From Gemmatimonadota bacterium (GTDB taxonomy: Bacteria > Gemmatimonadota > Gemmatimonadetes > Gemmatimonadales > GWC2-71-9): a DNA stretch of 51,257 nt. The stretch is taken from assembly GCA_039591655.1 (NCBI GenBank), contig JBDHDE010000023.1:1-51257 (forward strand), written 5' to 3'. Under the pieces are notes generated by a model. That model worked only from the letters and a program-made list of their open reading frames with translations. It had not been told where the DNA came from and did no database searches. The position numbers were made by a program, and so were the translations under genes. Positions 2,828-15,544 of this stretch are shown one piece after another; the stretch's first letter is position 1; each line of letters begins with the position of its first letter.

Positions 2828-4465
2828 ATGGCCGCACCTTCTACAAGTGACGACGCCAACGTCCAGGACATGTCGGCAACCCGGTTCGAGCGCCCTTCGG
2901 CACCGGAGCGACGTGGCGCCGGGGCGCCGGAACTGCCCGAGGACTTGTTGCGAGCTGCAGCCAAGCGGCTGCGCTTGGTCGCGCTCATATACGCCGGCGG
3001 CTTCCTGCTGGTGGAGTCGTCGGTGGCTCTACTCGATCCGGTTCAGCGGCAGGACTACACGCACTTCTATGGCTGGGCCCCCGGCGCGGTCTCGATAGTC
3101 CTTGCGCTGGTCGTGGCCGCCCTCGCTGGCGGTTCGCGGCTCTCTCTCCAGTCGATCATGAATGTGGGTGTGGCGTTCGAGGTCGTTGCTGCCTACGCCA
3201 TCGCCGCGGCCACGTACTGGGGCGTGTATCGCGGACTCGAGTACGAGCCACGACATCTGGCGATCTTTGGGCTGTCGTTCGTCGCTCCGTGGATCATGTT
3301 CTACACGATCGTCATACCCAACCCGCCACGGAAGGCGCTGTGGGCTGCGACGCTCGCCGCGACCGCGGTGCCGGTGGCCCTGTTGCTCACCATGCGATAT
3401 GGGGGGACCTCGATCACCCTGACGGTAGGGACCTTCGTCAGCACGGTGATAGTCCCGTATGGGATCATCGTCGTGACCGCGTATATCGGTGCTCAGGTGG
3501 TCTACAGGCTCGGAAGAGCGGTGCAGCAAGCTCGTGAGATGGGTAGCTACCGGCTCATCGAGCGGCTGAGCTCGGGTGGCATGGGCGAAGTGTGGCGCGC
3601 GGATCATCGAATGCTAGCGCGGCCGGCGGCGGTCAAGTTCGTGAGGCAGGACGTGCTCGGCGGCATCGGTGCCGAGAAGCGGCAGCGGACCCTGGGACGC
3701 TTCAAGCGCGAGGCGCGGGCCACCGCGCTCATGCGATCCCCGCACACCATCGAGTTGTACGATTTCGGTGTCACGGATGACGGGACCTTCTACTACGTGA
3801 TGGAGCTGTTGGACGGGTTCGACCTCGAGACGCTGGTGCAGCGTTTCGGGCCCCTGCCGGCGGAGCGAGCGATCCACCTGCTCCGGCAGGCGTGTGATTC
3901 GCTGGCGGAAGCACATGCGAGCGCCCTGATTCACCGTGACATCAAGCCCGCTAACATCTACGTGTGCCGCTTCGGTGGAACAGTGGATTTCGTCAAGGTC
4001 CTCGACTTCGGCCTCGTCAAGGGGCGGCAGGCCGACGCGCTGTTTGATGCGGACGTCACTGGGGAGCACATGGCCGGGGGCACGCCGCCGTACATGGCGC
4101 CGGAGCAGGCCGGCGGCGCCGAGGACATTGACGCGCGGGCCGATATCTACGCCGTTGGCTGTGTGGCTTACTGGCTCCTGACGGGCAAGCTGGTGTTCGA
4201 GGGCCGGACGGCGGTGGAGCTCATGGCGCACCACATCCAGACGGCACCGGTGGCTCCCTCCGAGCGCACAGAGAGTGAGATTCCCACGGCCCTCGATGAG
4301 GTGATCCTGGCGTGTCTCGAGAAGGACCCTGACCGCCGCCCGCAGAGCGCACGCGACCTCTCCCAACTGCTGGCCGCATGCGACACGGCGGCGCCATGGA
4401 CGGAGCAGCGGGCCCAGGAATGGTGGCAGCAGCACCGGCCGTTCGTTCCAGCATCGATGACATAG
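2828..4465 (+). CDS. Hanks-type Ser/Thr protein kinase with N-terminal multi-pass membrane domain (paralog 1)
   Basis: GGMGEV, AAVK, HRDIKPANI, DFG, YMAPE and DIYAVG motifs; about 6 hydrophobic segments in the first ~230 aa. Confidence 0.95.
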   Translation: MAAPSTSDDANVQDMSATRFERPSAPERRGAGAPELPEDLLRAAAKRLRLVALIYAGGFLLVESSVALLDPVQRQDYTHFYGWAPGAVSIVLALVVAALAGGSRLSLQSIMNVGVAFEVVAAYAIAAATYWGVYRGLEYEPRHLAIFGLSFVAPWIMFYTIVIPNPPRKALWAATLAATAVPVALLLTMRYGGTSITLTVGTFVSTVIVPYGIIVVTAYIGAQVVYRLGRAVQQAREMGSYRLIERLSSGGMGEVWRADHRMLARPAAVKFVRQDVLGGIGAEKRQRTLGRFKREARATALMRSPHTIELYDFGVTDDGTFYYVMELLDGFDLETLVQRFGPLPAERAIHLLRQACDSLAEAHASALIHRDIKPANIYVCRFGGTVDFVKVLDFGLVKGRQADALFDADVTGEHMAGGTPPYMAPEQAGGAEDIDARADIYAVGCVAYWLLTGKLVFEGRTAVELMAHHIQTAPVAPSERTESEIPTALDEVILACLEKDPDRRPQSARDLSQLLAACDTAAPWTEQRAQEWWQQHRPFVPASMT

Positions 4466-4500
4466 AAGGGGTCGCAAGAGATCCCGTCGGCACCCCCGCA

Positions 4501-5511
4501 TCAGGCTAGGCTCTTGAGCGCGCTCCAGATCGCCTCGACCCGACCGTCCCACATGTGAGACAGCTCGACGACCGCAACGTCACGGCAGCGGTTGCAGCCC
4601 TCCGCGCGCCCCAGAAACTCGCCGAACTCCGGACTCCGCAGCAGCGTCTTCAGTGAGGTCTGCCGCACATTGGCGAGCGGAACCGCCTGCTGCGTGCAGT
4701 CGAGGACGTCCCCGTTCGGCTCGACCCGTAGGCAGACCTTCTTGAAATGGCAGCGATACCGCCCTGCGTCAGGACCGAGTCGTGCCAGGTACGAGTTCGA
4801 GTCGCTCACGGGGAATCCGCGTTGCCGAAGTGCCGCGATCCTGACGGCGATGCTCGCCTCTTCCTCGGCCTCCAACTGGACGCGCTCCAAGTCGATCGTG
4901 CGCTCGGCGTGGCCGTAGTCGGTGACGTCCATGGCCTGGAATGACACCTGATCGCCGAGGCGCTTGCCATATGCCGCGATCGCCTCCAGTTGATCAGAGT
5001 TCAAGCGAGACAACACCACGTTGATGATCACCGCGATGTGCGGATAGGCTCGCCGCACGTGCACCAGACCTTGGTCCAGACGCTCGAACAAACCCGGCAG
5101 CCTCCGGACCTCGTCGTGCCTGGCGCCGATGCCGTCCACCGACACCATGAGGCGGTCCACCCAGGGAAGCACCTCATCGGCTCGTTCCTCGAGCCACCAT
5201 CCGTTCGTTATGAGGGTGGTCATGAGCCCCGCTTCGCGCGCGGCGCGGAGTGCCGCATCGGCGTCCTGCCGAAGGAGAGGCTCGCCACCCCACAGGACGA
5301 GTGCACGAAACCCCGCCGCCGCTGCATCGCGGTACAGTTCGGTGACTTCCTCGATGGAGAGTTCATCGACCTTCGCATTCGCCGGCATCTTCCACAGGCA
5401 GGTCACGCAGTCGGCGTTGCACCTGCCGGTGAAGAGATGTGAGAGTATGAACGGCCGGTGATCCACGAACCGGGTGCGCAGCGCTCTCAGGGCTAGTCGG
5501 GCGGGCAGCAT
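4501..5511 (-). CDS. Radical SAM enzyme with C-terminal SPASM/Twitch domain
   Basis: CNADCVTC (CxxxCxxC), GGEPLL, ITNG, VSVDG; C-terminal YRC...PNGDVLDC...CNRC. Confidence 0.93.
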   Translation of the reverse strand: MLPARLALRALRTRFVDHRPFILSHLFTGRCNADCVTCLWKMPANAKVDELSIEEVTELYRDAAAAGFRALVLWGGEPLLRQDADAALRAAREAGLMTTLITNGWWLEERADEVLPWVDRLMVSVDGIGARHDEVRRLPGLFERLDQGLVHVRRAYPHIAVIINVVLSRLNSDQLEAIAAYGKRLGDQVSFQAMDVTDYGHAERTIDLERVQLEAEEEASIAVRIAALRQRGFPVSDSNSYLARLGPDAGRYRCHFKKVCLRVEPNGDVLDCTQQAVPLANVRQTSLKTLLRSPEFGEFLGRAEGCNRCRDVAVVELSHMWDGRVEAIWSALKSLA

Positions 5512-5543
5512 CGTCGGATCCTCGACAGCCAGTGTGTGGCGCC

Positions 5544-5576
5544 AGTGTAACGCTGCCGAGTCAAGGGAACGTCAAG
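5544..5576 (-). promoter_or_regulatory. Tandem CTTGAC-N5-CTTGAC box with -10-like TACACT upstream of the radical SAM gene
   Basis: GTCAAG at 5560-5565 and 5571-5576 (11-bp period). TACACT on the minus strand at 5549-5544 lies 10 nt after the proximal box. Confidence 0.6.
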
Positions 5577-5591
5577 CGACGGACGACCGGG

Positions 5592-6623
5592 CTATCCCGC
5601 AGGCGTGAGCTGCACGACGGCGCGCCGCCGATCCCTGAACCGTACCTCGGTGTGGCGCCAGCTCGCTCGCCCCGTTGACCATCGTCCGTCCGCCCCAGGC
5701 CCGATCTCGATCTTGAGGACCACCCCGCGCAGGTGGTGCCGCAGCCGGTAGCCGAACGTGCAGTTCCCCAGCGAGTACGCCACGAGCTGGCTGCCCCGGT
5801 CGTTCGCGTATGACGTGACGGGCTGGGGGCAGTGGGAGTGGTGTCCCGCGATCATGTCCCACCGTTGGAGCAGGCGCCGCGCGTTGGCGATCTGGGCGGG
5901 ATGCGGGTAGGCCTGGAGCTCGTAGCCCCAGTGGGGACAGAGAATCCGGTAGGGGACCTCAACGCGAAGCCGGTCGATCTCGTTCTCGGCCACGACATAC
6001 CCACACGGCTGGTTGGACCAGGCGGTGCAGCAGGCAATCAGCACCTCGTCGTTCACCACGACAGCTGGCTGGTCCGTGCGGCCGATGGGCAGGAAGCCCC
6101 GCGACCGCAGCAGCTCGTAGGATTGGCGAAACTGCTCCCACCCGTAGTCTCCTGCGTGGTTGTTGGCGCAGGTGAGTACCGTGCGCTCCGGGGGGAAGAG
6201 GTCCGCGAGAAGGTCGAGCACGGCTGAGGTCTGCCGCTGTCCCATGAAGACGGGCTTGACCGCGCCGCGGGTGACCGTTCCCTCAAAGTTAGCCACCAGC
6301 ACGTCGGCGTCCTGGAGGAACCGCCTCAGGCTCGCTCCGAACTCGAGCCGCGTGCCGTGCAGGGGGAGCACATCCCCCACGAAGGCGATCGTGAGACGGG
6401 GTTCGATCGGATTGAGCATCGCGTCAGGTGGCAACGATGCAGTGAGCTCGCGATGCCTCTGCGACGGTCCCAGGAGGTTGTGCTTCACCCACGCCAGCGC
6501 CTCGGGCAACGAGTACGGCTGCGCGAAGTAGCGCCGCGGCCGCTCCTCGTCCCAGCCCTGCCGTGCGGAGGCCGCCTGCACGGCCCGCAGCGTCACGGAT
6601 AGTCTCGTATCACGATGCGGCAT
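5592..6623 (-). CDS. CapA/PgsA-family calcineurin-like metallophosphatase
   Basis: AFVGD, VANFEG, CANNHAGDYG, PHWGYE, GHHSH and YSLGN motifs. ATG at 6623 overlaps the end of the MMPL gene. Confidence 0.88.
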   Translation of the reverse strand: MPHRDTRLSVTLRAVQAASARQGWDEERPRRYFAQPYSLPEALAWVKHNLLGPSQRHRELTASLPPDAMLNPIEPRLTIAFVGDVLPLHGTRLEFGASLRRFLQDADVLVANFEGTVTRGAVKPVFMGQRQTSAVLDLLADLFPPERTVLTCANNHAGDYGWEQFRQSYELLRSRGFLPIGRTDQPAVVVNDEVLIACCTAWSNQPCGYVVAENEIDRLRVEVPYRILCPHWGYELQAYPHPAQIANARRLLQRWDMIAGHHSHCPQPVTSYANDRGSQLVAYSLGNCTFGYRLRHHLRGVVLKIEIGPGADGRWSTGRASWRHTEVRFRDRRRAVVQLTPAG

Positions 6624-8874
6624 CCGGGATGGTCTCCGTAGGGGGGCGGGGCAGGGGTGCCGGGGTGCGAACGAGCTCACCGGGCCACCAGTTCCACTTG
6701 CCCGCGATCGCGAGCAGCGCAGGGCCCAGGGCGATGCGCACCACGGTGGCGTCGAGCAGGACGGCTACCGCCAGCGCAAACCCGAGCATCTTCATCACGA
6801 GGAAATCACCGAGCGTGAACGCGCCGAACACCACCACCATGATGGCGGCGGCGCTGGTGATGACAGGGGCGGTGCAGGCCAGACCCTCGGTGAGCGCTTC
6901 GGTCTCGCCACGTCCTTGACGCCGCGCCTCTGCGACGCGGGCGACGAGGAACACCTCGTAATCCATGGAGAGCCCGAACACGGTGCAGAAGACGAGCGTG
7001 GGAACGACGGCGAACACGACCTGGGTAGGGCCGCCGAGTCCGAGCAGCGTGGCGCCATGGCCGTCCTGGAACACCAGCACCACGGCGCCGAACGAAGCGG
7101 CGACCGAGAGGAGATTGAGGGCCAGGGCCTTGAGCGGCACCAGTATGGAGCGAAAGCCCACCAGCAGGGCGAGGAATGTGCCCGTCACGACCATGGCTAC
7201 CACCGTCCAGAACCGTCCCCCCACCGCGTCCTGGAAGTCGGCGCGCAGGGCGGGAAGCCCGCCGAAGCGCACGCGAACCCCCTCGAGTCCCGTGATCGAG
7301 GGGTAGTCGAGAGCACGCCATTGGTACACAAGCTCTATGACGGTGACGGGATCGAGTCCTTCCCGGGGGATCGCCTCGAGTAGCAGCGTGCCGCGGTCGT
7401 CGGCGAGGTAAGCCTCGCGCAGCTCGCGCGCCGTTGCCAGAAGAGTGAGACGCGATGGTGGACGAGCCCGCTCGAAGTTCGTGAACGAGTTGACCGTAGC
7501 GGTATGTTCGCTGGCAAAGAGGTGTTGCCGCAGCCGCCGAGCCGCTGTCCAGCCGATCCGATCGAGGACCGTAGTCCCCTCCGGCAACTCCACCAGGATT
7601 CGGACAGTCTGCAGTACGCCGGTGCGCCCCATCGCCTCGAGCTCGTGGAGTGCCTGGATGGATTCCTCCTCCTTCGGCAGCCAGTCCGCGTCGGGCTGAC
7701 CGGTGGTCATACGGGGTGCTTGCGATGCGAGGGCTAGCAGTGGGAGTCCGGCGACGGCCAGCACGGCCAGGGGATGGCGGGCCACGAGCCGCCCCCAGCG
7801 GTGCCAGCGCGCGGAGGATCTCGGTGCTCGAGGCGCTGGGCGGAGCCGGCCCCAGTCGATGGCGCCCCTTAGAATTGCGAGCAGCGCGGGTAGGAGCGTA
7901 GATGATGCCAGCACCGCGAATCCTGCGGCGAGGATCCCACCCACGGCCACCGAGCGCAGTTCGTTCAGCGGAATGGTGAGCAGGGCCACGAATCCGATGG
8001 CGACCGCAGCGCCTGAGAGTGCAACGGTCCGGCCAGCGTACCGTCCGGCGTCGCGCGCCGCTTCATGTGGCGCTCGCCCTGCCGCGCGGGACTCGCGGAA
8101 GCGGCTCACCGTGAGGAGCGCGTAGTCGATCCCCAGGCCGAGGCCGATCATCGACACGAAGCTCTGGAGCATGATTGACAGTGGCCACGCGGCGCTGATT
8201 GCGGCGGCCGTGCCCAGGGCGAAGGCGATGACCAGGATTCCTGAGATCACCGGGATGGCAGCGGCGACGAGCGTCCCGAAGGCCGCGAGCAGCAGGAGTA
8301 GGGTCAGCGGGAGAGCGCGCTGCTCGGCGTCCCGTGCGTCGGCGGCGCTGGCGCGTCGGAGGTCGGCGTTGAGGGCCGCCTGCCCGGTCCAGCGGAGCCC
8401 GACCGCCGGGTAGCGCCCTGAGAGGCCCTCCGCGAGCCCCCTGGTCGCAGCGCGGAGGCGCTCGACGACGACGTCGGGCGCGCTTCCATTGGCGTCGATC
8501 CCCGCCAGCACGAACGTCGCCGCGTGACCCGCAGCGACGAACAGGGTATCGCGCGCGTCCTCGTACGACCGCACCCGGGTCAGGCCGGGCACGCGGCGAA
8601 CCGCCGCCGCCACCGAGTCCAGCACCATGCGCCCTGCGACCTCCGTCGGTGATGGCGTGCCGGAGACCACGAGCACGGCATAGTGAGCGTACGGCTGCAC
8701 GAAGCGCAGCGCAACGAGCGAGTCCACGGCGGCCGACTCGCTGCCTCGCACTCGGGCGGCCACATCGAGCGAGCGTTCCACGCCGCGCGCCGCCGGCAGC
8801 ATCAGGACTGCGGTGGCAGCCCAGCAGGCGAGGACCCACCAGCGCCGGCGCACGATGAGGTCGGAGAGTCTCAT
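6610..8874 (-). CDS. MMPL family (RND superfamily) transporter
   Basis: Two repeats with GLGIDYALL and FGLSMDYEVFL; ITSAAAIM; multi-TM architecture with two large loops. Confidence 0.95.
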   Translation of the reverse strand: MRLSDLIVRRRWWVLACWAATAVLMLPAARGVERSLDVAARVRGSESAAVDSLVALRFVQPYAHYAVLVVSGTPSPTEVAGRMVLDSVAAAVRRVPGLTRVRSYEDARDTLFVAAGHAATFVLAGIDANGSAPDVVVERLRAATRGLAEGLSGRYPAVGLRWTGQAALNADLRRASAADARDAEQRALPLTLLLLLAAFGTLVAAAIPVISGILVIAFALGTAAAISAAWPLSIMLQSFVSMIGLGLGIDYALLTVSRFRESRAAGRAPHEAARDAGRYAGRTVALSGAAVAIGFVALLTIPLNELRSVAVGGILAAGFAVLASSTLLPALLAILRGAIDWGRLRPAPRAPRSSARWHRWGRLVARHPLAVLAVAGLPLLALASQAPRMTTGQPDADWLPKEEESIQALHELEAMGRTGVLQTVRILVELPEGTTVLDRIGWTAARRLRQHLFASEHTATVNSFTNFERARPPSRLTLLATARELREAYLADDRGTLLLEAIPREGLDPVTVIELVYQWRALDYPSITGLEGVRVRFGGLPALRADFQDAVGGRFWTVVAMVVTGTFLALLVGFRSILVPLKALALNLLSVAASFGAVVLVFQDGHGATLLGLGGPTQVVFAVVPTLVFCTVFGLSMDYEVFLVARVAEARRQGRGETEALTEGLACTAPVITSAAAIMVVVFGAFTLGDFLVMKMLGFALAVAVLLDATVVRIALGPALLAIAGKWNWWPGELVRTPAPLPRPPTETIPDAAS

Positions 8875-8896
8875 GGCGCTCAAGTACCACCCCGAC

Positions 8897-8940
8897 CGTC
8901 AAGCGAGGGTCAAGTCGCCGTGCTTGACGAGCGCTTGACG
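8897..8940. promoter_or_regulatory. Divergent promoter region with 44-bp dyad of four GTCAAG/CTTGAC boxes
   Basis: GTCAAG at 8898 and 8909; CTTGAC at 8923 and 8934. Outer arms CGTCAAGCG/CGCTTGACG are a perfect inverted repeat, and both pairs share centre 8918.5. Confidence 0.7.
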
Positions 8941-8981
8941 CTACTGCGGGCAAGTTGTGAGCGACACGAGGGGAGACACCC

Positions 8982-10133
8982 ATGTCCGCAGTGACCGTTC
9001 AGACGCCCGAGCACATGGCCCGATCGCCCGCGGGGATTAGCATCCGGGCCGGCAGGCCCGAAGACAACGACGGCCTCCTGGAGCTGGCAGCGGCGTGCCC
9101 GATGCAGGCCGAGATGACGGTCCGTGTGCGGCGGGAGCCGGACTTCTTCGCGCTGTCCCGGCTCCAGGGCGAGCGCTGGGAAGTCGGCGTGGCCGAGACA
9201 CCAGACGGCACGATCGCTGGCTGCATCGGGGTTGCCGGGCGCCGGGTGCACCTCTGGGGCACACCTACGCAGACGATGTACGTGAGCGACCTGAAGGTGC
9301 GGCCGGAGTTCCGGGGGATCGGTGTGGCGGACGCGCTGTCGGGTTACGCCCGGTCGGTGTGTCGGGAGGTGGCGCCGGACGTCCTGACGCTGACCACGGC
9401 GCTTGCCGGCAACCGGGCCATCGAGCGACGCGCCCGCGGACCGCGCGGGATGCCCGTGCTCGGTCGGTTTGCCACCGTTCGGCTCCACTCCATGGTTCTG
9501 CTGCGGGCGCGACAGGTACCTCTCGCAAGTCTCCGGCTCATGCAGGCCGAGGAAAGAGACCTCGAGGAGATGATGGCACTGTGGCGCCACGTGGCGCCCG
9601 GCCGGCAGTTCGCACCGGTGCTCGATGCGAGCGCGCTGGCCCGCTGGATCGCTGCGGCTCCGGGCATGGACGTGTCGTCATTCTGGCTGGCGCGGCGTCC
9701 GGACGGTGCGCTCGGCGGATTCATGGCCGTCTGGGATCAGCACCCGCTCAAGGAGACGCAGGTCCTGCGCTACTCGTGGCGAGCGGCGGCGTTTCGTGGG
9801 GCGTACAATGCAGCCGCCTCGCTGCTCGGTGCGTCGCCGCTGCCGCGCGCGGGCGGGCCACTGCGCTTCGTGTCGGCGTTTCACACCTGCGTCTCGCCGA
9901 GCGCGCCCGAAGTGCTACGCGCATTGCTCATATCGGCGGGCAACGAGGCTCGCCGCAGAGGCTACGCGTTCTTGAACCTGGGACTCGACGTCCGTGACCC
10001 GCTTCAGGTGGCGGTTCGCGGACTGTGGAGCCTCTCCACCGACATCCGGGCATATGCAACGACGCCGCAGGGGCGCTACGTGGGTCCCCCGCTCGGCGAT
10101 CGCCCGCTGCACTTCGAGACGGCGCTGGTGTGA
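8982..10133 (+). CDS. GNAT-family acyltransferase, probably tandem GNAT fold
   Basis: YVSDLKVRPEFRGIGVA acyl-CoA-binding motif A; a second GNAT-like start (AEERDLEEMMAL); RBS GAGGGGAG upstream. Confidence 0.85.
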   Translation: MSAVTVQTPEHMARSPAGISIRAGRPEDNDGLLELAAACPMQAEMTVRVRREPDFFALSRLQGERWEVGVAETPDGTIAGCIGVAGRRVHLWGTPTQTMYVSDLKVRPEFRGIGVADALSGYARSVCREVAPDVLTLTTALAGNRAIERRARGPRGMPVLGRFATVRLHSMVLLRARQVPLASLRLMQAEERDLEEMMALWRHVAPGRQFAPVLDASALARWIAAAPGMDVSSFWLARRPDGALGGFMAVWDQHPLKETQVLRYSWRAAAFRGAYNAAASLLGASPLPRAGGPLRFVSAFHTCVSPSAPEVLRALLISAGNEARRRGYAFLNLGLDVRDPLQVAVRGLWSLSTDIRAYATTPQGRYVGPPLGDRPLHFETALV

Positions 10134-10158
10134 CTGCGCCCAGCCGAGGAGGTATGTG

Positions 10159-10224
10159 ATGAGCCGGGCCCTCGAGACCAAAGCGGACGGCCCCCGCTCG
10201 CGTGAGGTCGTATACAAGCTCTGA
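10159..10224 (+). CDS. Small 21-aa peptide MSRALETKADGPRSREVVYKL (candidate precursor or leader peptide)
   Basis: GAGGAGG at 10146-10152, 6 nt before ATG 10159. The ORF fills the gap between two operon genes and uses mostly G/C-ending codons. Confidence 0.6.
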   Translation: MSRALETKADGPRSREVVYKL

Positions 10225-10237
10225 TGAGGAGGCAACG

Positions 10238-11026
10238 ATGACGCCATCACCCAAGCTTCGCGTGCGGCCGGTCCGCGTAGGCCGGCTCACATCCGACCAG
10301 ATCGATCGGATGTGGAAACTCTATGCCGACCACTACGACCACGTGACGCGGGACGCCTTCGATCGCGATTTGGGCGAGAAGACTCTCGTGTTCTTGGGAA
10401 TCGATGCGGCGAGCAAGGAGATCGTAGGGTTCTCCACGGCCCGCATCTATCGGCATCACTATGGTGGGCGCTGGGTGGGTGTCTACTTTTCGGGCGACAC
10501 CGTCGTCCTGCCGCAGTACTGGGGCCAGCGGGCGCTGCACAACTGTGTGTTCGCGACCCTAGTACGGTGGAAGCTGCGCCACCCGTTCACGCCACTCTAC
10601 TGGCACCTCATCTGCTCCGGCTACCGCACCTACCTCACGCTGGTGCGCAACTTCCCTGAGCACTGGCCGCACCACGCGCGCGCCACGCCTCGGTGGGAGC
10701 GTGGGCTGATCGATTCGATCTGCCGCGAGCGCTACGGCGGAGCCTGGCGGGCGGAGCGAGGAGTGATCTCCTTCGGCGAGGTGCAGCCGGTGCTGAAGCA
10801 GGCCGTGGCGCCATTCACCAGCCGCGTGCTGTCCCTGCCCGAGGTGCGTTTCTTCGTGGAGGCCAACCCTGGACATGCCAAGGGGGATGAACTGGCGATG
10901 ATCGCCCGGGTGAACCTCCAGGCCGGGATCCAGGTGTTGGGTAAGTGGCTTCGCAGGCTGCTCCGGCGCGCGGCGCCGGCGCGCTTGCAGCGGCGCGGAG
11001 CCGACCTGCCGGAGCCGGCACGATAG
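10238..11026 (+). CDS. Conserved hypothetical protein, probable GNAT-like fold (GH3-associated)
   Basis: RBS GAGGAGG at 10226-10232; IVGFST, FSGDTVVLPQYWGQ (degenerate motif A) and YWHLICSGYRTY segments. Confidence 0.7.
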   Translation: MTPSPKLRVRPVRVGRLTSDQIDRMWKLYADHYDHVTRDAFDRDLGEKTLVFLGIDAASKEIVGFSTARIYRHHYGGRWVGVYFSGDTVVLPQYWGQRALHNCVFATLVRWKLRHPFTPLYWHLICSGYRTYLTLVRNFPEHWPHHARATPRWERGLIDSICRERYGGAWRAERGVISFGEVQPVLKQAVAPFTSRVLSLPEVRFFVEANPGHAKGDELAMIARVNLQAGIQVLGKWLRRLLRRAAPARLQRRGADLPEPAR

Positions 11027-11034
11027 GGGGCAGT

Positions 11035-12645
11035 GTGCGGGAGAGGCTCTTCAAGGCAGCCTTCCGGCTGGGGACCGGCAGACGCGCCCGGCGCTTCGAG
11101 GTCGCGCTGCGCCATCCCCAGCGGGTGCAGGAAGGGGTGCGGCGTCGCATGGTGTGTCTCGCCGCGCAGACCGAGTACGGTCGGCACCACGGCCTGACGG
11201 GTGGCGAGTCGTACGCGGAGTTCGCGGCGAAGCTGCCGATCGTGGAGTACGAGGACCTCCGGCCGTGGATCGAGCGGCAGGCGACCACGGGCGGCTCGGT
11301 GGTCGCGGCCGAGCAGGTGGTCGTGTTCGAGAAGACCTCCGGGAGCTCCGGGCGCTCCAAGCTCATCCCCTACACGCAGGCGCTGCTCGACTCCTTCAAC
11401 GGGTGCTTCCTGCTGTGGGCCCACGACCTCATCCGGCACGGGCCGCCATTTCGCACTGGAAGGATGTTCTGCAGCATGTCGCCCGCGTTTCGCGACGAGC
11501 GTGAGACGGCAAATGGGGTACCCATCGGCTTGGAGGACGACGCGGCGTACCTCTCCCCCGCCATGCGCCGGCTCTTCGGGCCCCTCTTCGTGGTCCCGCC
11601 CGGGATCAAACGGCTGCGCGACCCGCACACGTATCGGCTGGCGCTCGCGTGCTTCCTGATCGCCGAGCATCGGCTGGAAGTGCTCTCGGTGTGGAGCCCC
11701 ACGTACTTGCTCAGCCTGCTGCAGTTCGTGGCCGAGAACCGGACGGCAGTGGTCCGGCAGCTTGGGCTGGGCGCGGTCGGCCCCGGGGAGCCTCCTCTGA
11801 GCTTCGCCCCGCCGGCGCCGCAGCGTCTTGCGCTACTCGAGGGAGATCCGATTCCCTGGGAGCGGGTCTGGCCCGACCTCAAGCTCCTCTCCTGCTGGAC
11901 CGATGCCGGATCGACGCGGTTCGTGGGCGCGCTCCGCCGGGCCTTCCCAACGGTGACGATCCAGGGAAAGGGGCTGCTCGCCACCGAGGCGCCGGTCACG
12001 ATTCCCCTCGTTGGCGCACCGGCTGCTGTTCCCCTGGTAGAGGACGTCTTCTTGGAGTTCGAGAGTGGTGGGGGCGTCCGCCGGCTGCACGAGCTCCAGG
12101 AGGGCGAGCAGTACGGCGTGATCGTCACCCAGGCCGGGGGCCTCATGCGCTACCGCATGCACGATCTGGTGCGCGTTGAAGGACGAGTCGGCCGGACCCC
12201 GTGCCTCCGGTTCATGGGGCGCGACAACCTCGTGGCCGACCTGGTGGGAGAGAAGCTCAACGAGACGTTTGCACGCAATGCGCTGACCAGGGCATTGGGG
12301 AGTGGGGACGGGATGTCGTTCCTGGTGCCGGTCCCGCGCGCCGAGGCAGCGTCGTTCTACCTGTGCGTCACCGACTCCCCCGACGCCGGCCGCGAAGGAG
12401 CAATGTGCGCCGCGCGGCTCGATGCGGAGCTGCAGCAGGCGTTCCACTACCGCCAGGCGCGACTCCTCGGGCAGCTGGCCCCCGTGCAAGTGCACTTCGC
12501 CCCCGATGCTGGCGAGCGCTACGAGTGCCTGTTCTTGAGCCGAGGGGTGAAGTGGGGCGACATCAAGTACGCTTCGGTGGTCACGACCGGCACGGCGCGG
12601 GAGCTGGAGGTCCTTCTGGCGGAGTGGGACACGCCGGCCGCATGA
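11035..12645 (+). CDS. GH3 family acyl-adenylate/amido ligase
   Basis: KTSGSSGRSKLIPYT (motif I), GLLATE (II), GLMRYRMHDLV (III), GEKL. GTG start chosen just after the upstream stop. Confidence 0.9.
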   Translation: MRERLFKAAFRLGTGRRARRFEVALRHPQRVQEGVRRRMVCLAAQTEYGRHHGLTGGESYAEFAAKLPIVEYEDLRPWIERQATTGGSVVAAEQVVVFEKTSGSSGRSKLIPYTQALLDSFNGCFLLWAHDLIRHGPPFRTGRMFCSMSPAFRDERETANGVPIGLEDDAAYLSPAMRRLFGPLFVVPPGIKRLRDPHTYRLALACFLIAEHRLEVLSVWSPTYLLSLLQFVAENRTAVVRQLGLGAVGPGEPPLSFAPPAPQRLALLEGDPIPWERVWPDLKLLSCWTDAGSTRFVGALRRAFPTVTIQGKGLLATEAPVTIPLVGAPAAVPLVEDVFLEFESGGGVRRLHELQEGEQYGVIVTQAGGLMRYRMHDLVRVEGRVGRTPCLRFMGRDNLVADLVGEKLNETFARNALTRALGSGDGMSFLVPVPRAEAASFYLCVTDSPDAGREGAMCAARLDAELQQAFHYRQARLLGQLAPVQVHFAPDAGERYECLFLSRGVKWGDIKYASVVTTGTARELEVLLAEWDTPAA

Positions 12646-12934
12646 TCCCGCCCGACCTGCCACCTCCCCAGCGGCGATTCCCGGTTCACAACGGTAACCT
12701 CTTGTAGGGCAGCGAGTTACACCGTTCTGTCGCGCTCCGTGTGAGTCCCCCGCGACGCGACCTCTCGCGGGCCTCCGTCGAGTTGCGACGCGCATCACAG
12801 CAGCGCACCCAGCACTCCCATAGCCTGGGAACAACCGGCGAATCGCCCTGCCTGCGGGCTATCCTCGGGCCCGGGTGGGGCACTTGCCAACGTCATGAAC
12901 TGGGGGATCGACCTCCTCAGACTGGGTGCGAACG

Positions 12935-13552
12935 ATGAGCAATCCGCAGAACTGGGGCACGCTGCAGTTCAAGGGCGTGATTGGTGACACGGAGGAGCGC
13001 TGGCGCCGCCAGGTGTTCCCCGAAATGCAGAGCTCCGCGAGCTTCCAGGCACGCGTCCACCAGGATCCATTCCTGCGGGACGCGTACGCCGTGCTCACGG
13101 CCGAGTCCGACGGGGAGGCCGTCGAGGCGGCCAAGCAGCTGCGCGGCCGCTGGTTCCCGTTTCACGCGCTCAATGACGACAATAGCAAGCGCACGGCCTG
13201 GCTCGATGAGCTGCAGCAGGTGACGAGGGCCGAGGCGCAGGAGCGGGGGAGCTCGGAGCAGGAGATCGAGGACTTCCTTGCCGCGCAGTCGCTGTGGCTC
13301 GCCGTGCTGCGCTCGCCCCTGAAGCTCACGGGTGTCGAGACCTGGCAGCAGGGACAGAGACGATGGATCCAGGAATCTCGGGCAAGCGCCGTCCGCACGA
13401 CCGCAGACGGAGATGAGCCGCGCGGCAATCAGCCGGTCGCGTACACGCCCCCCTCACCCGAGCGGTTCATTACGGAGACGCGCCTAGCGACTCCCCGAGG
13501 ACCAACAGACGGCGATGCGACTCTCCTACGTGACTGGTCTCATGGAGGATGA
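12935..13552 (+). CDS. Hypothetical helical protein
   Basis: About 205-aa ORF with GC-typical codon usage in the first two thirds; no motif recognised. Confidence 0.6.
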   Translation: MSNPQNWGTLQFKGVIGDTEERWRRQVFPEMQSSASFQARVHQDPFLRDAYAVLTAESDGEAVEAAKQLRGRWFPFHALNDDNSKRTAWLDELQQVTRAEAQERGSSEQEIEDFLAAQSLWLAVLRSPLKLTGVETWQQGQRRWIQESRASAVRTTADGDEPRGNQPVAYTPPSPERFITETRLATPRGPTDGDATLLRDWSHGG

Positions 13553-13876: not shown

Positions 13877-15544
13877 GTGGCGGCACCTTCTCCAAGCGAC
13901 GAGACCGACCGCGTCCCATTGGTCACCCGAGTCGAGCGGCCCTCGATGCCGAGCCGGCGAGCCTCGCGGCCGCCCTCCCTGAGCCTTCCTGAAGACCTGC
14001 TGCGTGATGCCGCGAAGCGGCTTCGCGTGATCGCGCTTATCTTCGCCGCCGGCTTCCTCGTGGGGGAGCTCGCCGTCGTGGTCTTCGCTGCCGATCTCCG
14101 CGAGGAATACAGGCATTTCTACGGCTGGGGCCCGGGCGTGATCTCAGTAGTCATTGCCCTGGCGGTCGCCGTGTTGGCCGGCAGTAAGCGGCTCTCTCTC
14201 AAGACGATCATGAATACCGGGGTGGCGTTCGAGGTCTTGGCCGCCTATGGCATTGCATTCTCCGCGTACTGGGGCATCTACCGCGGGCTCGAGTACCGGC
14301 CGGAGCACCTGACGATCTTCGGGCTGTCGTTCGTCGCGCCCTGGATCATGTTCTACACGATCGTGATACCGAACCCGCCCCGGAAGGCCCTGTGGGCGGC
14401 CGTCCTAGCTGCCACCTCGGTGCCGGTGACCCTGCTGCTCACCATGCGCTACGGTGGATCATCTATTGAGCTGGAGCCGGGAGGGTGGATCAACGTCGTG
14501 ATCGTGCCGTACGGCATGATCGTCATCACGGCGTACATCGGTGCGCGCGTCGTCTACAAGTTGGGCACGGCGGTGCGGCAGGCCCGCGAGATGGGGAGCT
14601 ATCGGCTCGTCGAGCGACTGGGTCGGGGCGGCATGGGAGAAGTGTGGCGTGCGCAGCATCGCATGCTCGCGCGGCCAGCGGCGATCAAGCTGGTGCGGCC
14701 GGACGTGCTCGGGGATATCGAGAGCGACCACCGGGAGCGGACGTTGGGGCGATTCGAGCGTGAGGCCCAAACGACGGCGCTCATGCGTTCCCCCCACACA
14801 ATCGAGCTGTACGACTTCGGCGTCACGGATGACGGAACGTTCTACTACGTGATGGAGCTGCTGAACGGCTTCGACCTGGAGACGCTGGTGCAGCGGTTCG
14901 GACCGGTGCCGGCTGAGCGTGCGATCCACCTGCTCTGCCAGGCCTGTGACTCGCTGGCGGAGGCGCATGAGAATGCCCTGATTCACCGCGACATCAAACC
15001 TGCCAACATCTACGTGTGCCGGTACGGCCGTCGTGTGGACTTCGTGAAGGTGCTGGACTTCGGGCTCGTCAAGCTGCGACAAGAAAGCGCTCAGGCTGAC
15101 ATGAAGGTCACCATGGATCACGCTGTTGGCGGCACACCGGCGTATATGGCGCCAGAGCAGGTGGCCGGCGATGAACAGGTCGACGGGCGTGCCGACATCT
15201 ATGCCTTGGGATGTGTGGCCTACTGGCTCTTGACTGGTCAGTTGGTGTTCAAGGGCAGAACGGCAGTGGAGATGATGGCCCGTCACCTCCAGACGCCGCC
15301 GGTTGCTCCGTCGGAGCGGACCGAGCTGCAAATCCCCAAGGAGCTCGACGAGGTGATCCTGGCCTGTCTGGAGAAGGACCGCGACCGCCGCCCGCAGTCT
15401 GCAGAGGAGCTCTCGCGAATGTTTGCTGCGTGCGGCGCGGCGTCACCCTGGACGGATCAGCGGGCCCGGGAATGGTGGACGTTGCACCAGCCGCGGATCT
15501 CTACGGCGGGCGACGCGGAGGGCCGGTTCATCGCGGCTTCATAA
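13877..15544 (+). CDS. Hanks-type Ser/Thr protein kinase with N-terminal multi-pass membrane domain (paralog 2)
   Basis: GRGGMGEV, AAIK, HRDIKPANI, DFG and YMAPE; collinear and highly similar to 2828-4465. Confidence 0.95.
   Translation: MAAPSPSDETDRVPLVTRVERPSMPSRRASRPPSLSLPEDLLRDAAKRLRVIALIFAAGFLVGELAVVVFAADLREEYRHFYGWGPGVISVVIALAVAVLAGSKRLSLKTIMNTGVAFEVLAAYGIAFSAYWGIYRGLEYRPEHLTIFGLSFVAPWIMFYTIVIPNPPRKALWAAVLAATSVPVTLLLTMRYGGSSIELEPGGWINVVIVPYGMIVITAYIGARVVYKLGTAVRQAREMGSYRLVERLGRGGMGEVWRAQHRMLARPAAIKLVRPDVLGDIESDHRERTLGRFEREAQTTALMRSPHTIELYDFGVTDDGTFYYVMELLNGFDLETLVQRFGPVPAERAIHLLCQACDSLAEAHENALIHRDIKPANIYVCRYGRRVDFVKVLDFGLVKLRQESAQADMKVTMDHAVGGTPAYMAPEQVAGDEQVDGRADIYALGCVAYWLLTGQLVFKGRTAVEMMARHLQTPPVAPSERTELQIPKELDEVILACLEKDRDRRPQSAEELSRMFAACGAASPWTDQRAREWWTLHQPRISTAGDAEGRFIAAS

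Follow-up and report, generated by a model that had tools for sequence, protein, structure and literature searches.

A putative carrier-free acyl-amide gene cluster of a Gemmatimonadota bacterium and the scar of its deleted Rieske oxygenase gene

Contig JBDHDE010000023.1 of a Gemmatimonadota bacterium (assembly GCA_039591655.1) carries a compact gene cluster that combines a GH3-family ligase, two GNAT-fold proteins and a radical S-adenosylmethionine (rSAM) enzyme. The window, i.e. the whole stretch of DNA that was analyzed, comprises 51,257 nt, and the cluster spans positions 4501 to 12645 (Table 1). Six intact open reading frames (ORFs) are arranged in two divergent arms separated by a gap of 107 nt. 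The left arm, on the minus strand, holds the genes of an MMPL transporter, a CapA-like protein and the rSAM enzyme, and the right arm, on the plus strand, holds GNAT1, a 21-codon ORF, GNAT2 and the GH3 ligase; the CapA-like and MMPL genes overlap by 14 nt. A first-pass annotation of this DNA had described two divergent arms tied together by an upstream repeat, and this layout was confirmed: the ORFs are intact, and the direct repeat TTGAC-N6-TTGAC occurs three times in the window, each time in an upstream gap of the cluster. As also stated there, neither a polyketide synthase (PKS) nor a nonribosomal peptide synthetase (NRPS) or acyl carrier protein (ACP) was found among the six genes by Pfam and NCBIfam searches. 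None of the cluster proteins reached an NCBIfam equivalog cut-off. Near-identical DNA is present in marine sediment metagenomes; among the data sets listed with it, none was of RNA.

Table 1. Genes and sequence elements of the cluster, in window coordinates
Feature	Positions	Strand	Support
Radical SAM enzyme, 336 aa	4501..5511	-	Pfam Radical_SAM + SPASM; cluster-linked family
TTGAC-N6-TTGAC direct repeat upstream of the radical SAM gene, promoter-like site of its own	5560..5575	-	
CapA/PGA_cap metallophosphoesterase-fold protein, 343 aa; candidate epimerase or hydrolase	5592..6623	-	PF09587, 95 bits
MMPL-family RND transporter, 754 aa; predicted exporter	6610..8874	-	PF03176, 2 stretches (two MMPL repeats), 211 bits
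TTGAC-N6-TTGAC repeat facing the MMPL arm	8898..8913	-	
TTGAC-N6-TTGAC repeat facing the GNAT-GH3 arm	8924..8939	+	
GNAT1, 383-aa acyltransferase of tandem-GNAT type, fold like that of N-myristoyltransferase, C-terminal end fixed	8982..10133	+	
21-codon mini-ORF, read as ribosome-binding site, start codon and final codons of a deleted Rieske oxygenase gene	10159..10224	+	
GNAT2, orphan single-domain GNAT-fold protein, 262 aa, GH3 partner	10238..11026	+	Predicted structure, fold searches, linkage
GH3-family acyl-adenylate/amide ligase, 536 aa	11035..12645	+	PF03321, PF23571, PF23572 (GH3, GH3_M, GH3_C), all above cut-off

The short ORF between GNAT1 and GNAT2 had been annotated as a small peptide, the candidate precursor for the lipidated-peptide option. 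An ORF of 21 codons does exist, but comparison with related loci (L numbers below; G numbers denote genomes) identifies it as the remnant of a deleted Rieske oxygenase gene, of which the ribosome-binding site, the start codon and the last codons are left. In L003 and other relatives, a 350-aa Rieske oxygenase fills the gap between GNAT1 and GNAT2. The enzymes of this clade have a Rieske and a VanA_C domain, with the SxtT group (SxtT/GxtA family) as nearest structures, and 25 of their 26 ORFs end in Y[KR]L-stop, the remaining one being half of a frameshifted gene. The mini-ORF ends in REVVYKL-stop, exactly as 4 of the 26 Rieske ORFs do (one of them that of L038), and an ending of the form [VI][VI]YKL occurs once among the 92,071 stop-ended frames of the window's genome, namely in the mini-ORF itself. 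In the two closest relatives (L001 and L002), 82 nt are absent, which leaves this ribosome-binding site and its ATG directly joined to GNAT2. A joint is also present, from position 10161, in a co-occurring relative in sequencing run X1. The window's genome (95% complete) contains no Rieske orthologue; its four Rieske-domain genes did not match the oxygenase at an E-value of 1e-8.

A hidden Markov model (HMM) built from 17 Rieske sequences of the clade gave the mini-ORF no more than 5 bits; the ORF is too short for this approach, and the assignment therefore rests on its position, the terminal motif and the DNA alignment. Taken with the loss of the full 82 nt in L001 and L002, the scar in the window points to an internal deletion of the Rieske gene, followed by its complete removal in sister lineages. 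Such a scar was also looked for in L218, L219 and L043, where none was found. An assembly artefact was rejected as the origin of the mini-ORF, as it is spanned by contigs of runs X1 and X2, each of which differs in a single letter; both runs belong to one study and may include the window's source. Separately, the Rieske gene of L143 (positions 4101-5080 of a metagenomic contig) is split by a frameshift, either an error or early decay.

The mirror image of this loss was found at L039, where the Rieske gene is intact and, of the rSAM gene, just the final ~52 codons are left (4147-4414), directly behind the repeat. Over 53 aa, this stub shares 85% identity with the full-length protein P0145, and the genome G190 (97% complete), which has the Rieske gene and only an rSAM stub, contains no full rSAM copy. 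Genome-wide searches detected the rSAM gene and no Rieske orthologue in G000, G232 and G280, and both genes in G406 and on contig L151. At the locus itself, both are retained in L151 and L037, and only the rSAM gene is retained in L217, L218, L219, L043 and the window. Since the window is nested among Rieske-bearing loci in a tree of the core proteins, with rSAM carriers scattered and the two states interleaved, both genes were probably ancestral in the clade and were then lost in turn. Horizontal acquisition of the window's rSAM gene found no support; this enzyme just has a higher degree of conservation than the core, and its tree leaves the node in question open.

For a wider view, GNAT2 served as the marker in genome and metagenome scans, two of which contributed the best 80 of 553 hits and the best 80 of 534. 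The locus set comprised 190 loci, the window included, after 23 duplicates were dropped, and 76 of these have at least 5 kb on both sides. Counts, alignments and tree include the unpublished genomes G402 (L004, L033) and G407 (L038); the conclusions are unchanged without them, as L003/L035, L032, L040, L041 and L147 agree. GNAT2 has 162 identified homologues and occurs, within the phylum, in 10 of 401 genomes, and GH3 lies directly 3' of GNAT2 in 109 of the 132 loci with room for it. The 76 well-flanked loci contain GH3 (69), GNAT1 (61), a Rieske gene (48), UnbV/RnfD-like genes (21), desaturases (19), B12-binding rSAM enzymes (14), CapA (11), window-type MMPL (10) and window-type rSAM (4), and further recurring partners are fatty-acid hydroxylases, P450 and a second MMPL family. 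With regard to the redox enzymes, 46 of the 76 carry only a Rieske gene, 15 only an rSAM gene of either type, 2 carry both and 13 neither. Seven further GNAT2 homologues agree in the length of their longest contig with an rSAM homologue, an indirect sign that the two may be co-carried.

From this linkage pattern, the conserved unit is a core of GNAT1, GNAT2 and GH3 with exchangeable redox and export partners. Judged by record titles, its hosts are Gemmatimonadota, Myxococcota, Planctomycetota, Bdellovibrionota and Pseudomonadota, including cultured Pleionea (e.g. Pleionea sediminis, L132), Burkholderia and Acinetobacter strains. Both arms together were found in other Gemmatimonadota, which answers the question raised by the first-pass annotation of whether they co-occur elsewhere. 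The MMPL-CapA arm is restricted to a Gemmatimonadales clade, and the exact six-gene set was found, among the loci examined, only in the window and in L217, which belongs to the same genus and whose proteins are 79-86% identical to those of the window.

Individual loci show how the surroundings of the core vary. A record of Acinetobacter baumannii (L221:5393-12850) has HlyD, MFS, GNAT2, GH3, TolC-type and GNAT1 genes in a row, and one of Burkholderia arboris (L222:6479-16658) combines the core with a Rieske gene and three desaturases. At 21 of the 76 loci (L071, L113, L052 and others), large fusions of an RnfD-like membrane part with FG-GAP and ASPIC/UnbV parts follow a Rieske-type core and replace the MMPL gene; their carriers are myxobacteria, planctomycetes and other Gemmatimonadota. 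In L027, L028, L048 and L170, the core has B12-binding rSAM paralogues beside it, in tandem arrays of up to four or more. No credible fusion of core genes was found; an ORF of L058 contains both GH3 and Rieske parts, and there was one weak long match.

The three repeat copies in the window compare with an expectation of 0.02, and none of 100 shuffles reached three. Written as CTTGAC-N5-CTTGAC, the repeat has 19 sites genome-wide (G000), where any other spacer length from 2 to 13 nt gives 0-3, and it is followed after ~10 nt by a -10-like element with its A in 15 and its T in 18 of the 19 sites. Four of five other Gemmatimonadota genomes tested contain 4-18 copies each, and a reversed control gave 0. 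At related loci, the repeat precedes the rSAM gene (L001, L151), the rSAM remnant (L039) and GNAT1 (L001, L003, L032, L034, L040, L041, L137, L143, L147 and L149). The shared upstream repeat of the first-pass annotation is thus indeed present ahead of both arms, but it is not specific to the cluster; by its distribution in the genome, it marks a regulon of 19 sites. Most of these precede short ORFs that, judged by eye, resemble secreted proteins or lipoproteins. An 11-bp direct repeat at this position resembles the activator sites of the OmpR/PhoB/SARP type. The genome encodes five BTAD-domain genes, none of which was assigned as regulator of the repeat. A Pho box was rejected, as no phosphate-uptake gene was recognized by eye among the 19 downstream ORFs. 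Rfam gave zero matches in 4000-13500, and scans for sigma-70 promoters and terminators stayed at chance level.

The GH3 ligase contains the nucleotide motifs TSGSSGRSK, GLLATE and GLMRYRMHD, which correspond to the three motifs published in PMC12493201 (for this and all other papers cited, statements refer to the passages found). Motifs I and III are near the published forms, and the divergent motif II reads GLLATE in 99 of 121 homologues. The only matches in the Protein Data Bank (PDB) were plant GH3s, and the OlsH equivalog of NCBIfam was not reached (40.1 bits versus a cut-off of 620). OlsH converts a fatty acid and ATP to an N-acyl ornithine, plant GH3s conjugate pre-existing acids (PMC12493201), and OlsH is the sole GH3 route named in the passages found of the review PMC12971839. 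The cluster resembles the OlsH/OlsI ornithine-lipid pathway of Singulisphaera acidiphila (PMC12493201) in having a bacterial GH3 with three nucleotide motifs, for which ACP-free formation of an amide from a free acid, ATP and an amine is predicted. However, besides the divergent motif and the low score, the partners differ: the alpha/beta-hydrolase OlsI and the methyltransferase OlsG there, two GNAT-fold proteins, a redox enzyme and an exporter here. No OlsI-type alpha/beta-hydrolase was found among the six genes, and one lies near a few myxobacterial loci only.

GNAT1 matched generic GNAT models of Pfam and none of its N-myristoyltransferase (NMT) domains. A profile of 70 sequences gave human NMT1 as best PDB match (E 3e-5), and the predicted structure (pLDDT 93.6) had NMT1 as top Foldseek match (E 7e-15). 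In the VIA comparison with yeast NMT, the model aligned over 317 residues with a Z score of 24.1 and an rmsd of 3.6, reaching its last residue. The C-terminus reads Glu-x4-stop in 93 of 100 homologues, with Asp at that position in 6 more, and 41 of 70 retain Thr138, which lies close to where NMT has Thr282. In eukaryotic NMT, the C-terminal carboxylate acts as base and Thr282 as platform (PMC7048800). The likeness to this enzyme comprises a tandem GNAT fold across the full chain (TM ~0.6), the alignment to the last residue, the fixed C-terminal end and, in part of the family, a threonine near Thr282; the differences are an identity of 10-15%, an Asn246 position that is not conserved, the tie with mycobacterial MAB_4324 and the small-molecule context of the cluster.

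GNAT2 had no Pfam or NCBIfam match, and its predicted structure (pLDDT 92) is a single GNAT fold. The best match in the fold search was NatD (Z 12.0), no family stood out, and near folds include drug and amine acetyltransferases. Invariant residues are G86-D87-T88 and N210/G216/E218. Two GNAT-fold proteins, as initially annotated, are therefore present, GNAT1 by Pfam and fold and GNAT2 by its predicted structure. FeeM of the Fee N-acyl-tyrosine cluster appeared at rank 50 of the GNAT2 fold list (Z 9.2), not distinct from generic GNATs. The Fee cluster reportedly also combines a GNAT-fold N-acyl synthase with oxidative tailoring, but it is said to use an ACP and to lack a GH3.

The rSAM enzyme exceeded the Pfam cut-offs for Radical_SAM and SPASM, and the label radical SAM/SPASM holds to this extent. 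Its CxxxCxxC motif (C31/35/38) and the auxiliary cysteines C254, C272, C306 and C309 (3 + 4) are invariant in 25 aligned sequences. The four C-terminal cysteines are what we take to be one Twitch-type auxiliary cluster and not a two-cluster SPASM domain, and the cysteine spacing resembles that of small-molecule dehydrogenases such as BtrN. The best PDB match was BlsE (E 5e-14), and the enzyme stayed far below every cut-off of the peptide-maturase NCBIfam models (among 25 listed). Orthologues adjoin the core in L217, L037, L151, L218, L219 and L043.

In the CapA-like protein, the motifs GD, N-x-E, NNH, H-W-x-x-E and GHH-x-H are invariant in 10 sequences, and the metal motifs are intact. While the PGA_cap fold of the annotated CapA-like phosphatase was thus corroborated, the phosphatase activity is unproven, and the only NCBIfam match, far below its cut-off (30.4 bits versus 700), was MslH. 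As MslH is a CapA homologue that acts as C-terminal epimerase (PMC8179263), an epimerase is as plausible as a phosphatase, and the protein may be the former. It shares with MslH the metallophosphoesterase fold, intact motifs and a place beside amide-forming enzymes, but it is shorter than the 439-position model, and neither lasso machinery nor a precursor accompanies it. A second CapA clade (~30% identical) adjoins the core in L151:13563-14579, L218:5886-6956, L219:14725-15804 and L062:3828-4820; by their placement, CapA-like proteins were recruited beside the core more than once. The MMPL protein was correctly named, having a two-repeat match to the family (Table 1), and its orthologues in related clusters are 56-86% identical.

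We assign a probability of roughly 55% to the reading that this is a co-regulated, ACP-free cluster that builds and exports an N-acyl amide lipid, and that the rSAM enzyme covers, without O2, the oxidative step of the lost Rieske oxygenase. What is established are the gene content, folds and intact motifs of the cluster, the upstream motif common to its arms, its conserved linkage, the scar of the Rieske gene, that of the rSAM gene in a relative and the near-exclusive distribution of the two enzymes; the reactions are predicted from these. The GH3 ligase would adenylate a free carboxylic acid and join it to an amine, like OlsH and plant GH3s. GNAT1 would transfer a long-chain acyl group from acyl-CoA to a primary amine, with the carboxylate of its C-terminus serving as base in the manner of NMT, and GNAT2 may add or relay a further acyl group or work with GH3. 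The rSAM enzyme would oxidize the product by a dehydrogenation or oxidative decarboxylation type of reaction, an optional step with the Rieske oxygenase as alternative. The CapA-like protein would epimerize or trim the amino-acid end, and the MMPL transporter would export the product. Lipid-type partners that recur at core loci, such as the desaturases, count for an acyl-amide lipid, as do the exporters of HlyD, MFS and TolC type next to the Acinetobacter core.

An exported N-acyl amide or amino lipid had already been suggested from the sequence, and it fits all evidence. The combination had also been called unrecognized, and no characterized pathway of GH3, NMT-like and GNAT proteins was found in the literature searched, subscription journals being mostly outside of it. 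In the passages found of PMC9162365 (Acinetobacter clusters) and PMC11445212 (PA1895-1897), the cassette is not described. Alternative O2-dependent and rSAM enzymes within one pathway have a precedent in HemF versus HemN and AhbD (PMC10548856). In contrast to that case, equivalence is deduced here from distribution and gene scars only, and the O2-dependent partner is a VanA-type Rieske oxygenase.

Several observations weigh against this interpretation. The Fisher p of 1e-6 for the exclusion of Rieske and rSAM genes overstates it, because the loci are kin. Loci with neither enzyme (13 of 76) imply that the oxidative step is optional, and the loci counted as rSAM mostly carry B12-binding enzymes, often methylases (14 versus 4 of the window type among the 76). 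A COX1-family heme-copper oxidase was found in 21 of 21 genomes and NrdD in 0 of 21, and thus oxygen lifestyle fails to separate rSAM from Rieske hosts. For GNAT1, MAB_4324 was on a par with NMT in the fold search (Z 25.1, the alignment reaching residue 367), and the position of NMT Asn246 is Gly, Ser or Cys in the family.

Some of these points are shared by the best-surviving alternative, in which the acyl-amide pathway is the same, but the Rieske and rSAM enzymes each act as an optional tailoring enzyme, independently of the other, and lead to different congeners, with an ancestor that had both and lineages that lost either. The loci that keep both genes (L151, L037), those that have neither, the equal oxygen markers of both host groups and the many metagenomic contigs with a window-type rSAM that are unreadable for Rieske are in its favor. 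However, only 2 of the 63 loci having either enzyme combine them, the losses in the window and L039 mirror each other, and the core tree shows several alternations between the two states, so that we regard independent tailoring as possible, but somewhat doubtful.

A conjugation and efflux unit for detoxification or signal quenching, in which GH3 and the GNATs cap incoming acids or amines and the MMPL transporter pumps the conjugates out, appears improbable. Conjugation of existing acids by plant GH3s (PMC12493201), the drug and amine acetyltransferases among the nearest folds of GNAT2 and the patchy presence in the phylum would agree with it, but the repeated recruitment of desaturases, P450, B12-binding rSAM enzymes and UnbV/RnfD-like proteins is typical of biosynthesis, and the cluster is co-regulated with exported proteins instead of a local sensor. 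Even less credit is given to protein lipidation, where the NMT-like enzyme would acylate protein N-termini, perhaps of the short exported proteins of the regulon. While the NMT fold extends along the full GNAT1 chain including its C-terminal end, and the repeat precedes many short ORFs that look secreted by eye, no conserved small target gene adjoins the cluster, the GH3, redox and MMPL proteins act on small molecules, and the regulon ORFs start with signal-peptide-like stretches, not with Met-Gly. Finally, the lipidated ribosomal peptide that the first-pass annotation offered as an option, with the 21-codon ORF as precursor, is hardly credible, because despite a good ribosome-binding site and the occurrence of rSAM, GNAT and MslH-like proteins in clusters for peptides that are made by the ribosome and modified after translation (RiPPs), this ORF matches the Rieske C-terminus at the Rieske position and is missing in the two closest relatives, which keep the flanking genes.

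Outside the cluster, flanking genes vary among relatives. In the window, two membrane Ser/Thr kinase genes with 73% identity (2828-4465 and 13877-15544, both on the plus strand) flank the cluster in the same orientation, and it looks as though the cluster had been inserted between tandem copies. A 208-aa ORF 3' of GH3 (12926-13552, plus strand) had no Pfam or NCBIfam match, nor did the first 11 related loci yield a copy of it.

Tentatively, the acyl-amide reading may extend to a new, widespread class of carrier-free natural products or signalling lipids built by GH3 and a bacterial NMT-like enzyme. One oxidative step would then be served interchangeably by Rieske, Twitch rSAM and B12-binding rSAM enzymes, the scars of the window and L039 would show both directions of exchange, and the CTTGAC-repeat regulon over the cluster would be one undescribed before. 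If true, it would give bacterial GH3s a second function after OlsH and reveal a bacterial enzyme with NMT-like chemistry. If the Rieske oxygenase and the small Twitch rSAM enzyme complement each other, each would assign the other's reaction, and together they would form a new aerobic/anaerobic enzyme pair. The finding also calls for caution, as a tiny ORF near a radical SAM gene can be a deletion scar and not a RiPP precursor. The core occurs in many phyla without a PKS, NRPS or ACP signature and has no product in the literature searched; since cultured carriers exist, this product can be sought now.

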